DNA of 64,000 nt from Escherichia coli (GTDB taxonomy: Bacteria > Pseudomonadota > Gammaproteobacteria > Enterobacterales > Enterobacteriaceae), in the NCBI RefSeq assembly GCF_013315695.1, contig NZ_CP054353.1; one strand, 5' to 3'. Within the stretch, counting starts at the first letter, position 1. Every line of letters starts with the position of its first letter. The position numbers and the translations under genes were made by a program. Below, piece after piece: positions 40,694 through 45,005 of the stretch. The notes under the pieces are model-generated. The model searched no databases. It was not told the DNA's origin and saw only the letters and a list, made by a program, of their open reading frames with translations.

Positions 40694-41391
40694 AGGGATT
40701 GCCAGTTAGCCGGCCAGGCGACATACAGGAATTTCACACTGGATGTCGTACCAAATTCGATGCTGGAGCCTTTCGGGATAAACATCACATCGCCTGCTTT
40801 GGCGATCATGGTTTCGCCTTCGTGGCGAACGTGCAGTTCCCCTTCCAGTACCATATCGATTTCGTCATAGTTGAGGGTCCACGGGAAGAAGGCGTTCTCC
40901 CACTGCATAAAACCGGCGGCCATGCTGCTGCCGTCGTCTCCGGTGACCAGATCCGTTAATCCGACGCAGTGTGGCTGTGCGCCGTCGAAACGACCAAACT
41001 TGACGCTGCTGCCATCAATCACTTTGATGCCGCCTTTGCCGGTCACCGATTTGAAGCTCGGCTGCATTGCACCCTGCTCCAGTGACTGTTTTTCCTTCAT
41101 CACTTTTTCCATCAGCTGCGCGACCAGGCTTTCGGTAAACTGGCCTTCCGGTAGCTGGGCGATGATGGTTTCGCGGATGCGCTGGCTTTCGGTTTTATCG
41201 GCTGGCACGCTGGCGGGAACGGACGTCGTTACCGCAGTCGATTCATCACATTCGGTGATGGTAAAACCCAACAGATCAGCCACTTCACGAGCTTCCGGGG
41301 TAATAATGCTGGCGCGCAGAACCACGGACATTGCCAGTTCGCCGCGCGCGTGTGCTTCACGAATATCATTCGCTGTGATGAGTTTTTTCAC
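40690..41391 (-). CDS. eutQ: Cupin-fold protein EutQ
   Basis: 233-aa ORF. Confidence 0.92.
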   Translation of the reverse strand: MKKLITANDIREAHARGELAMSVVLRASIITPEAREVADLLGFTITECDESTAVTTSVPASVPADKTESQRIRETIIAQLPEGQFTESLVAQLMEKVMKEKQSLEQGAMQPSFKSVTGKGGIKVIDGSSVKFGRFDGAQPHCVGLTDLVTGDDGSSMAAGFMQWENAFFPWTLNYDEIDMVLEGELHVRHEGETMIAKAGDVMFIPKGSSIEFGTTSSVKFLYVAWPANWQSL

Positions 41392-41845
41392 CTGCTTCCT
41401 CCTGTTTGGTGAGAGATGCCAGATAATCCACCAGTTGCTGCACGCTTTGCGGGTCGTGGCTGTTTAGCTCGAAAATCGGCTCTTCGAAGCCCGTCTCAAG
41501 CAATAACTTTCGCGTTGCGGCGACGTCAGCATCTGGCATGTCCGTTTTACTGATGACGGCGATTTGCCGTTTGCTGACGCCAATATCCAGCAACCCGGCA
41601 GGCAACCGACTTTCCGGGTCATTCGCGCCGTGGACATAGATCAGCATGTCCACATCCTGTAGCGTGGTAATTAAGGCGTGATACCAGCGGGGATGGCTAA
41701 AATATTCACCCGGCGTATCAATATCGCCCTTATCATTAAATTCCACGGCCTGTGTTTTTCTTGCGAGGGTATAATTCCCCTGCAACGCATTAAATAACGT
41801 TGTTTTTCCTGCCCCGACGGTACCCACAAACGCAATTCGTTTCAT
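41366..41845 (-). CDS. eutP: P-loop NTPase EutP
   Basis: 159-aa ORF with Walker A GTVGAGKTT; its GAGG RBS is retained 3' of the IS1 insertion point. Confidence 0.92.
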   Translation of the reverse strand: MKRIAFVGTVGAGKTTLFNALQGNYTLARKTQAVEFNDKGDIDTPGEYFSHPRWYHALITTLQDVDMLIYVHGANDPESRLPAGLLDIGVSKRQIAVISKTDMPDADVAATRKLLLETGFEEPIFELNSHDPQSVQQLVDYLASLTKQEEAGEKTHHSE

Positions 41846-41874
41846 GAATGCCTCGTATTAACTTTTGGTCATTT

Positions 41875-41883
41875 CACAAAGCG
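41875..41883. repeat. IS1 target-site duplication, left copy (CACAAAGCG)
   Basis: Identical 9-mer directly abuts both ends of the IS1 element. Confidence 0.85.
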
Positions 41884-41898
41884 GGTAATGACTCCAAC

Positions 41899-42402
41899 TT
41901 ATTGATAGTGTTTTATGTTCAGATAATGCCCGATGACTTTGTCATGCAGCTCCACCGATTTTGAGAACGACAGCGACTTCCGTCCCAGCCGTGCCAGGTG
42001 CTGCCTCAGATTCAGGTTATGCCGCTCAATTCGCTGCGTATATCGCTTGCTGATTACGTGCAGCTTTCCCTTCAGGCGGGATTCATACAGCGGCCAGCCA
42101 TCCGTCATCCATATCACCACGTCAAAGGGTGACAGCAGGCTCATAAGACGCCCCAGCGTCGCCATAGTGCGTTCACCGAATACGTGCGCAACAACCGTCT
42201 TCCGGAGCCTGTCATACGCGTAAAACAGCCAGCGCTGGCGCGATTTAGCCCCGACATAGCCCCACTGTTCGTCCATTTCCGCGCAGACGATGACGTCACT
42301 GCCCGGCTGTATGCGCGAGGTTACCGACTGCGGCCTGAGTTTTTTAAGTGACGTAAAATCGTGTTGAGGCCAACGCCCATAATGCGGGCTGTTGCCCGGC
42401 AT
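41899..42402 (-). CDS. insB: IS1 InsB (transposase C-terminal frame, expressed as InsAB' by -1 frameshift)
   Basis: 167-aa ORF matching IS1 InsB (…[21 protein letters not shown]…). Confidence 0.93.
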
Positions 42403-42596
42403 CCAACGCCATTCATGGCCATATCAATGATTTTCTGGTGCGTACCGGGTTGAGAAGCGGTGTAAGTGAACTGCAGTTGCCATGTTTTACGGCAGTGAGA
42501 GCAGAGATAGCGCTGATGTCCGGCGGTGCTTTTGCCGTTACGCACCACCCCGTCAGTAGCTGAACAGGAGGGACAGCTGATAGAAACAGAAGCCAC
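42321..42596 (-). CDS. insA: IS1 InsA (transposition inhibitor / N-terminal transposase frame)
   Basis: 91-aa [26 protein letters not shown]…; the A6C slippery run lies in the insA/insB overlap. Confidence 0.93.
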
Positions 42597-42646
42597 TGGA
42601 GCACCTCAAAAACACCATCATACACTAAATCAGTAAGTTGGCAGCA

Positions 42647-42970
42647 TCACCCACAAAGCGTATAATTTAATAAGCGTCCTAAACCACTGACGGTTTGTGA
42701 TAACGCTTCTTCTACTGCGCCCACCGAGCCATAAATCACCAGCGCGCCGCTAAAACGGTCGAGAAAACCGATATGCACATCGGCGGCTTTCAACGCTAAA
42801 TCACCGGCGATCATCGCCGTTTCTCCGGGAGTTAGCGTCATAATGCCAATTGCGCCCGCATCCGGAACGCCGATTTTCTTCGCCAGTTCCTCGCCGGGAT
42901 GCGCGATGAGATGCGCCAGTGTGACCTGTTTACCGGGCACAAATTCCTGAATGATGCGTTCTTTATCCAT
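42647..42970 (-). CDS. eutS: Microcompartment shell protein EutS with C-terminus rewritten by the IS1 insertion
   Basis: Product from ATG at 42970 ([21 protein letters not shown]…, permuted BMC domain); reading frame enters the IS1 inverted repeat and stops at 42647-42649. Confidence 0.88.
42652..42660. repeat. IS1 target-site duplication, right copy (CACAAAGCG)
   Basis: Identical 9-mer directly abuts both ends of the IS1 element. Confidence 0.85.
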
Positions 42971-43335: not shown

Positions 43336-44406
43336 ATGAAAATTCACTACCTTGTCACCACTCTCGAAACGGGAGGCGCTGAATTTGCGATTCCTGATAT
43401 TGTGACTACTCTACAAGATCTTGGTCATGAGGTGAAAATTTATGTATGTGAACCCCGAGATATGGGCGCGGCACCGCGTCTGAAAGCGGCCGGTTTATCC
43501 TGGTGTTTATTATCAAATCGGCGGCGTTCTGTTCCAGTGCTTGTCGGTGCTTATCTGGCAAAAATCATTTACGACAAACCCGATCTCATCTGGACTTCGT
43601 TAAGTTGGGGGACGCGTATTGGACAATGGGGCGGCCGACTTATGGGCATTCCGGTTATCAGTTTTAAACATAGCGCCAGCGTAAAACCAGCAACCTGGCG
43701 TATGCGCAGCATGTCACGTTTATGGATTGGCGATTCTGCAACCGTAACTCAATACCTGCATGAAACCATGCGGATCCCGAAGCAACAAGTGATGTGCTGG
43801 CCTTTTTTTCAGGCTAATCCGCAAGCTGCTCAAGCGAAAAAGTGGGACGGGGTATCAGTTTTACAATTAGGCACCGTTGGTCGCCTGCATGAAGTTAAAA
43901 ATTACGCAGGATTAATTACTGCACTCGCTTCGTTTGTCGATAAAAACCCGCAATTGCGCTCGCGAATCCGACTAACCCTTCTCGGTGAGGGAGCCGAACA
44001 AGAGGTTTTGAAAAAGACCATAACACAACACGCCATGGAGGATGTAGTTTGTTTAGCGGGGTTTTCTGCGGATATCGAAAATTTTCTTGCCGGATTACAT
44101 GTCTATATCCAAACTTCCCGCTACGAAGGGATGTGCCTCGCCGCACACGAAGCCATGAATGCAGGGCTTGCGATCATTACGCCCCCTGTAGGTGAACTTA
44201 AAGAATCGGTAATTGATGGTCATACCGGCTATATACTTAATGGCGAACTAACTCCAGCACTGGAGGAAGTACTTAACCGTATTTTCAATGAACCCACAGA
44301 ATTACAACACTATGGGCAAAATGCGCGTCAGTATGTATTACAGAAATTCAGCCATGAAAATTTTGTCCAGTCTGCAATCAACATTGTTAATAGACTTATT
44401 CACTGA
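43336..44406 (+). CDS. Glycosyltransferase, GT-B fold, family-4-like (retaining), orphan accessory gene
   Basis: 356-aa ORF; N-terminal Gly-rich motif (TLETGGAEFAIPDIVTTLQDLGHEV) and C-terminal EX7E motif (YEGMCLAAHEAMNAGLAIITPPVGE) typical of GT4 enzymes; lower G+C than neighbours. Confidence 0.75.
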   Translation: MKIHYLVTTLETGGAEFAIPDIVTTLQDLGHEVKIYVCEPRDMGAAPRLKAAGLSWCLLSNRRRSVPVLVGAYLAKIIYDKPDLIWTSLSWGTRIGQWGGRLMGIPVISFKHSASVKPATWRMRSMSRLWIGDSATVTQYLHETMRIPKQQVMCWPFFQANPQAAQAKKWDGVSVLQLGTVGRLHEVKNYAGLITALASFVDKNPQLRSRIRLTLLGEGAEQEVLKKTITQHAMEDVVCLAGFSADIENFLAGLHVYIQTSRYEGMCLAAHEAMNAGLAIITPPVGELKESVIDGHTGYILNGELTPALEEVLNRIFNEPTELQHYGQNARQYVLQKFSHENFVQSAINIVNRLIH

Positions 44407-44409
44407 ATA

Positions 44410-44445
44410 AGGCAGTAAAAAGGCATTTTTTGGTACTGCCTTTTC
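44410..44445 (+). terminator. Terminator-like hairpin after the glycosyltransferase gene
   Basis: GGCAGTA…TACTGCC stem with inner A5/T5 pairing, followed by TTTTC. Confidence 0.4.
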
Positions 44446-44954
44446 ACCGAATACTATGGTTATCGTACTTGTCGTGGCGATGGGAAAAGTCGTTACAGTT
44501 TTCATTCCCTTGCATAGCCGTGACGCCCCCTTTTCACACACAAAGAAAATGGTGGATGTTTTATACTCCTCCACCACCAAAGGCAGTCAAGATGGATAAG
44601 TTAATGCTCGCCCATGCCCCCAATTTATGGGCCATGGAAAAACGTCTTGCAAACAGCTGTGTACGGGAATAATAGCAGTGCGGGTATGAGCAAGACATTA
44701 TTTTATCATGACGGGCAAAATTGCAGCCGGACCTAGGGCGGTGCATTGCAGATGCTGAAACTGGACCCGCTATGTTTATTATCTCCAGAATTTAATGCGT
44801 CTGGAAGTACCTACAACTGCTGCGCCTTTTATTGATGGCATGCATACGCTTTCTGGTGTTGGCGACGTTACATTCATGATGCCTGGCTACAACTTAAGGG
44901 CTCGCCTCAGCAATTCTGAGTGGATGTACAGCGGCGTATACAGAAGTGGGTCAG

Positions 44955-44990
44955 CAAAACCGCTTACCCCGAATAAACAGGGTAAGCGTG
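44955..44990 (-). terminator. Terminator-like hairpin downstream of maeB
   Basis: Minus strand reads CGCTTACCC-tgtttattc-GGGTAAGCG followed by GTTTTGCTG. Confidence 0.45.
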
Positions 44991-45005
44991 ATTTAAAGGA
45001 ATGAA

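Follow-up and report, generated by a model that had tools for sequence, protein, structure and literature searches.

We found that eutS, the first gene of the ethanolamine utilization (eut) operon in the window (the whole 64,000-nucleotide stretch of Escherichia coli DNA analysed here), was changed at its 3′ end by transposition of a complete, apparently active IS1, with duplication of 9 bp of the target, and that the resulting allele is heritable. The best overall explanation, to which we assign a probability of about 0.8, is that of an IS1 insertion whose functional effects, as we infer them, rank as polarity on the downstream genes first, loss of the conserved EutS tail second and antisense transcription from a promoter built at the junction third. 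Operon polarity, rather than the altered tail, is thus probably the main effect. Ethanolamine use provides a competitive edge for gut E. coli and pathogens, so that the disabling or rewiring of the eut operon by natural alleles has consequences for strain ecology.

IS1 insertion into the last codons of eutS

The inserted element was recognised from its inverted repeats, length and open reading frames as a complete IS1 of the IS1A type, exactly 768 bp in length (41884..42651, minus strand). Its imperfect 23-bp terminal inverted repeats, GGTGATGCTGCCAACTTACTGAT and GGTAATGACTCCAACTTATTGAT, are both present at the element ends; the left repeat (IRL, 42629-42651) adjoins eutS and starts within its codon 107, and the right repeat (IRR, 41884-41906), read inward from the eutP side, adjoins eutP. 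The insA reading frame (91 aa, 42321-42596) and the overlapping insB' frame (167-aa insB ORF, 41899-42402) both share the orientation of the eut operon, and the IS1 sequence contains an A-run (TTAAAAAAC); RefSeq notes an 'IS1A family transposase, programmed frameshift' here. The element is flanked by a perfect 9-bp repeat, one copy of which lies on the eutS side at 42652..42660 (CACAAAGCG on the plus strand, CGCTTTGTG in the eut sense, eutS codons 104-107) and the other on the eutP side at 41875..41883. All of the features by which IS1 is known, namely the 768-bp length, both repeats, the insA/insB' frames and the 9-bp target duplication, were therefore found together.

We then translated the present form of eutS, which starts with an ATG at 42970 and runs on the minus strand, the orientation of the eut operon, through 107 codons to a TGA stop ending at 42647. 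The product consists of the native residues 1-106 followed by Gly107, and ends in NYTLCG. The first-pass annotation had described a frame that enters the IS1 inverted repeat and terminates in this way, and our translation gave the same result. The minus-strand end of the gene reads CTT TTA AAT TAT ACG CTT TGT GGG TGA, in which the stretch from AAT to TGA corresponds to 42667->42647 and the new codon 107 with the new stop to 42647..42652. The insertion point lies between eutS nucleotides 319 and 320, in codon 107; the GGG codon is composed of the last G of the target and GG from the IS1 left inverted repeat (GGTGATGCTGCC...), and the TGA stop is supplied by IRL positions 3-5.

In-silico deletion of the IS1 and one copy of the repeat restored a 111-aa EutS ending in NYTLCEMTKS, followed by a TAA stop, the 12 nt TACGAGGCATTC and the eutP ATG at 41845, so that the restored frame and its 12-nt distance from eutP, as initially proposed, were reproduced. 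The accompanying statement that one Gly takes the place of the tail also held, but the number of lost residues had been given as six, and translation gives five: E107, M108, T109, K110 and S111 are exchanged for a single Gly, and the protein is shortened from 111 to 107 aa. The displaced native end, GAA ATG ACC AAA AGT TAA (EMTKS*), now lies downstream of the IS1 at 41858..41875 on the minus strand, outside EutS translation.

The shortened product still scores 236.1 bits against the EutS family profile NCBIfam NF012012 (cutoff 123), aligning to profile positions 1-106 of 111, and RefSeq labels it eutS WP_001571747.1, an ordinary EutS with no pseudogene flag. The gene order maeB, GT4, eutS, IS1, eutP to eutR is otherwise kept, with eutS still the first eut gene.

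The short tail is not native

We next considered whether the ...LCG end might be native, or the junction an assembly artefact. In favour of this stands the RefSeq treatment of the 107-aa product as an ordinary EutS. However, the perfect 9-bp duplication around a complete IS1 speaks against it, and so does an IS-free relative, FDAARGOS_497, which carries the same upstream glycosyltransferase gene and the same EutP protein as the window. The site is empty in this near-identical relative, which has one copy of CACAAAGCG there and encodes the native 111-aa EutS, and the eutP-eutS segment of FDAARGOS_497 matches the IS1-excised window at 826 of 828 nt. The junction itself is 100% identical to that in the chromosome of E. 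coli MSB1_4I (NZ_LR898874.1; human rectal swab, Australia), the only one of 5,426 complete RefSeq genomes to contain the exact IRL-type junction, and it recurs in several independent assemblies, complete genomes included, which also argues against an artefact.

The ends of EutS orthologues were equally informative. A set of 42 diverse sequences (77-94% identity) from Enterobacterales, other Proteobacteria and metagenomes contained no LCG ending. Instead, they share the C-terminus C-x-hydrophobic-T-[K/R]-[S/T], at which almost all of the chains end exactly; C106 and T109 are invariant, and positions 110 and 111 are K/R and S/T, respectively, in nearly all of them. The same C-terminal pattern is found in PduU and in the C. 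difficile EutS. The window EutS departs from this motif, retaining C106 alone and losing the invariant T109 and positions 110-111. Moreover, every ...LCG locus examined (the window and 10 further loci) abuts an IS1 end. Taken together, the 111-aa protein of the IS-free relative and the absence of LCG ends among the 42 orthologues establish that the short tail was made by IS1, as had been proposed from the sequence, and leave the native-tail or artefact explanation with next to no probability. The native-tail hypothesis was accordingly rejected.

Probable polarity on eutP-eutR

Having attributed the short tail to IS1, we investigated the genes downstream of the insertion. The eutP gene (41366..41845, minus strand) encodes an intact 159-aa protein (NF012011, 351.7 bits), and its GAGG ribosome-binding site and 12-nt spacer are preserved. 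Indeed, all 16 downstream genes, eutPQTDMNEJGHABCLKR, are full length and contiguous on the minus strand from 41845 down to 27408. The 768 bp of IS1 now separate eutS from eutP and the 15 further eut genes.

In classical genetics, IS1 insertions in either orientation exert strong polarity, because Rho terminates transcription within insB', most of which goes untranslated. By analogy, the mostly untranslated insB' of the present element would strongly cut the induction of eutP-eutR from the eutS-proximal promoter, and autoinduction by EutR would be weakened or lost as well. We did not predict any intrinsic terminator inside the IS1 in the eut sense, or, at the IRR end, any promoter directed outward to eutP. 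The only promoter-like site reading towards eutP lies inside the IS1 (CTGCCA-16-TATGAT, 9/12 matches in a consensus scan; 42617..42644, minus strand), and we take it to be the left-end (insA) promoter of IS1 itself. Since no intrinsic terminator is predicted in the eut sense, some read-through, or transcription from this left-end promoter, could still express eutP-R. We thus infer that eutP-R expression is strongly reduced, perhaps not to zero. The allele is present on hundreds of contigs with the downstream genes intact, and this persistence is compatible with a retained function as well as with a recent loss that is neutral or mildly deleterious.

The arrangement resembles the classical polar IS1 insertions in gal and lac, in which the same 768-bp IS1 with a 9-bp duplication cuts the downstream genes from their promoter. 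Unlike those mutations, however, the present one is a natural allele of wild isolates, with its IS1 so close to the 3′ terminus of the gene that the interrupted protein is almost complete, and its polarity is a prediction. In K-12, the CPZ-55 prophage interrupts the eut operon in the eutA/eutB region. Both cases are natural disruptions of the E. coli eut operon by mobile elements, but the element and the place differ; no CPZ-55-type prophage is present in the eut operon of the window, where eutA and eutB are adjacent.

Significance of the lost EutS tail

The first-pass annotation had placed its emphasis on the altered C-terminus, which could affect shell assembly. We therefore weighed the explanation that the altered EutS itself is the main effect, with a 107-aa variant that mis-assembles or poisons the shell because the C-terminal motif is needed for the hexamer, the lid or a partner contact. 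The conservation of the tail is comparable to that of the protein core among the 42 orthologues, and the invariant T109, the nearly invariant positions 110-111 and the almost uniform chain end all favour this explanation. The tail also appears to be ordered: chain B of the crystal structure PDB 3I96 has 111 modelled residues, all of which align to the 111 native positions, and the complete native chain is visible in the crystal of the C. difficile EutS homologue (PMC3483176). In an AlphaFold2 model of the native protein, built from the 42-sequence alignment, the tail reached a confident pLDDT of 81-90 and residues 109-110 formed a beta-bridge. Since the tail is conserved and apparently ordered, the concern of the initial reading was reasonable.

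We then compared the models of the two forms. The native model, from the excised sequence, superposed on 3I96 with a TM of 0.86 and showed the circularly permuted BMC fold. The AlphaFold monomer of the variant kept all of the core elements (E16-23, H27-33, E40-47, H51-62, E65-71, E76-81 and H83-101) and lost the 109-110 beta-bridge. Its mean pLDDT was 82.2, against 85.1 for the native form, and the drop, a weak signal from monomer models, fell mainly on residues 21-40 and the tail; this slightly lower confidence counts for an effect on EutS. The variant also retains unchanged D57, K61 and H24-P25, which we take to be the hexamer-edge motifs of EutS. In comparison with E. coli K-12 EutS (PDB 3I96; EutS/PduU/CutR group), residues 1-106 are identical and the permuted BMC-H fold (PF00936) is the same, and eutS is the first eut gene in both; however, the window protein has 107 aa instead of 111, with G in place of E-M-T-K-S, and its gene no longer stands directly ahead of eutP. 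G39, the residue behind the bent EutS hexamer, is kept in the variant. The 107-aa protein would accordingly keep the permuted BMC core and the edge motifs and lose the conserved C-terminal motif, and the stability of the hexamer or the lid may suffer.

Nevertheless, several observations weigh against the altered protein as the main cause. In Salmonella, a scarless ΔeutS strain matches the wild type in growth on ethanolamine and still makes Eut compartments (PMC12487888), and because EutS is dispensable there, the loss of its tail is unlikely to matter much to the cell. Additions at the C-terminus are tolerated, as EutS extended by 8 residues at this end still gave crystals of hexamers, and Klebsiella EutS with a C-terminal His tag assembles into higher-order structures (PMC12058022). 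The core fold elements and edge residues of the variant are the same as in the native form, although the structure predictions, as monomers, are silent on the hexamer. Furthermore, eutM, N, L and K lie beyond the IS1, so that perhaps little shell is left to poison. We consider the altered protein to be an improbable main effect, and the emphasis on the tail was probably misplaced, with polarity preferred. The strong conservation of the tail still argues for some role hidden from ΔeutS laboratory assays, and the conservation of EutS has been taken by the authors of the Salmonella study to imply an undiscovered role (PMC12487888), which is a further point for an effect of the variant. The truncated EutS provides a natural test of the function of the conserved C-terminus.

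A candidate antisense promoter at the junction

A consensus scan detected a sigma-70 promoter-like site, TTGGCA-17-TATAAT (11/12 matches), on the plus strand at 42638..42666. Its -35 box, TTGGCA (42638-42643), lies within the IS1 IRL, and its -10 box, TATAAT (42661-42666), in eutS codons 102-104. No other site in the 64-kb window, on the plus or the minus strand, reaches 11/12 matches; local shuffling of the sequence gives an expectation of 0.48 such sites. A -35 at this place is lacking in the native eutS, and the junction with IS1 in the reverse orientation gives TTGGAG only. The candidate promoter is directed antisense through eutS, across the eut promoter region and then to the GT4 gene at 43336, and no terminator-like site was predicted between it and this gene.

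InsA binds the IS1 inverted repeats, and such binding might occlude the hybrid -35 box and repress the promoter. The IS1 inverted repeats are known to carry an outward -35 box and to form hybrid promoters with a well-spaced -10 (PMC8764528; PMC9330008), and the window junction has the geometry of such fusion promoters, with an outward -35 in the repeat and a -10 in the flank at 16-18 nt. The predicted promoter shares the outward -35, the 17-nt spacing and the flank -10 with the IS1 fusion promoters described previously (Prentki et al. 1986; afaA in ST131, PMC8764528), but whereas those drive transcription into the downstream gene, this one points antisense into the disrupted gene. The predicted IRL/eutS hybrid promoter could lower eutS expression by antisense transcription.

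Recurrence of the 107-aa allele

The identical 107-aa EutS is encoded on 479 contigs in public collections. We examined ten loci encoding it, which fell into two classes. At the six IRL-type loci, the GT4 gene lies upstream, the IS1 left repeat (GGTGA) adjoins eutS, and the IS1 is identical to that of the window at 768 of 768 positions, each in a different assembly. The right flank at three of these six consists of phage-like genes instead of eutP, which points to a later IS1-mediated rearrangement. The four IRR-type loci are without the GT4 gene, carry the IS1 in the reverse orientation and have an eutS with 12 differences from the window copy. They have the same 9-bp duplication and represent at least three backgrounds, whose upstream flanks differ by 16-50 substitutions per 2.8 kb, and their IS1 copies are identical to the window IS1 at 765, 759 and 717 of 768 positions. 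The exact IRR-type junction had no match in the RefSeq complete-genome set and was found in GenBank assemblies via protein look-up.

Since the IS1 ends begin with GGT(G/A)A, insertion in either orientation produces a Gly codon and a stop in the eutS frame, and hence the identical protein. The opposite orientations at the same nucleotide make it certain that at least two independent insertions occurred at this site. Three or four independent insertions are likely; one IRR-type insertion may instead have spread between backgrounds by recombination. A single origin of the ...LCG allele was rejected on account of the opposite orientations and of flanks that are 16-50 substitutions per 2.8 kb apart. 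The allele has been in the databases since about 2013 and is an ordinary IS1 insertion allele; in the literature searched, we found nothing relevant on IS1 in eutS or in the eut operon. Hot-spot behaviour of IS1 is cleanly illustrated in nature by this repeated use of identical target nucleotides.

Several related structures were also observed. At one locus (L011, 2820-3023), the same site is occupied by only 204 bp, bounded by the IRR and IRL of IS1 and flanked by the identical 9-bp duplication; this is a mini-IS1 that has lost its interior or the result of a repeat collapsed during assembly. The target duplication is lost in several derivatives among loci L010, L014, L016 (3588 onward), L013, L007 and L024, and the right flanks of their IS1 copies are phage-like genes (with a TMP_2 hit), tsx or unrelated DNA, rather than eutP. 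In WS4437A-1, two IS1 copies in inverted orientation flank eutS. All of these arrangements appear to stem from inversions or deletions mediated by IS1, by which eutS was completely separated from the operon.

Other IS1-truncated or IS1-extended EutS products (100-122 aa) are annotated in RefSeq and protein-database records as normal 'EutS' and not as disrupted genes. Because RefSeq mis-annotates the present product as an ordinary EutS, 'Eut-positive' genome predictions would miss this allele and the many similar IS1-fused eutS genes.

Clustered IS1 insertions around the start of the eut operon

Finally, we searched for other IS1 insertions around eutS with chimeric probes, composed of 92 bp of an IS1 end and 109 bp of target, against the 5,426 complete genomes, and counted IS1 within ~600 bp. 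At the 3′ end of eutS, nine genomes had the IRL facing eutS, at nine different sites, and 12 had the IRR facing it, at about eight sites. As controls of the same geometry, the 3′ ends of eutT and eutE gave 0 and 1 genome, respectively. The probe for the 3′ end of maeB, covering the maeB-eutS intergenic region, detected 40 genomes at about 13 distances, in addition to the eutS insertions already counted. The 40 genomes (hits H95-H134) are GT4-less, and 14 of them share an IS1B that abuts the maeB end. The intergenic region presumably contains the eut promoter.

Altogether, 21 of the 5,426 complete genomes carried IS1 in the stretch from eutS codon 89 to eutP codon ~65, at no fewer than 15 different sites. 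The hot stretch covers nucleotides 267-543 from the eutS ATG, corresponding in the window to about 42703 down to 41650 (loci L001-L028). The insertion points, given as the last eutS-sense nucleotide before the IS1, were mapped to 267, 288, 298, 300, 311, 319, 332, 335, 351, 356, 367, 414, 527 and 543, and sites 267, 298 and 319 contain IS1 in both orientations.

These data raised the alternative that the insertion is adaptive, with IS1 at the head of the operon selected to silence or rewire ethanolamine use and the ...LCG allele arising by convergence. The exact reuse of three sites in both orientations, the density of at least 15 sites in 21 genomes, the excess of the 40 genomes at or near maeB-eutS over the eutT and eutE controls, and the 479 contigs carrying the allele are all in its favour. 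On the other hand, the hot region overlaps a local GC trough: the GC content falls from 53-59% in the neighbouring coding sequence to 41-44% where eutS meets eutP and to 28-37% in the promoter region. IS1 is known to prefer AT-rich targets and specific hot spots (Zerbib et al. 1985, cited in PMC9330008). In view of the trough and this preference, target choice by IS1 is sufficient to account for both the clustering and the site reuse. Selected loss of eut would furthermore predict insertions all along the operon, and the controls are two coding sites, with genome counts that ignore kinship. Selection on eut expression is a possible cause of the clustering, but we regard the adaptive explanation of the insertion as unlikely.

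With the ordinary IS1 insertion preferred, we propose only tentatively, and with some doubt, that the head of the eut operon (the promoter region, the eutS 3′ end and the eutP 5′ end) is a natural IS1 hot region that possibly acts as a selected, recurrent off or rewiring switch. If this is true, the ...LCG EutS would be convergent, and antisense control of eutS from the junction promoter could be part of the rewiring in E. coli lineages of the gut. The bidirectional, convergent reuse of the site, the dense IS1 hot region and the near-consensus predicted antisense promoter at the junction are the points that go beyond a routine insertion.

Some minor observations concern the neighbourhood and the protein clusters. 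The GT4 glycosyltransferase gene (43336-44406, plus strand) lies in a low-GC island between eutS and maeB and is absent from many E. coli, and it is split by a frameshift in loci L010 and L019. In FDAARGOS_497, it is followed by a gene of the 'glucosamine inositolphosphorylceramide transferase family', which is apparently missing in the window (44407-45005). The 90%-identity cluster that contains EutS also holds 159-aa EutP sequences and has EutP as its representative, which looks like a clustering artefact.
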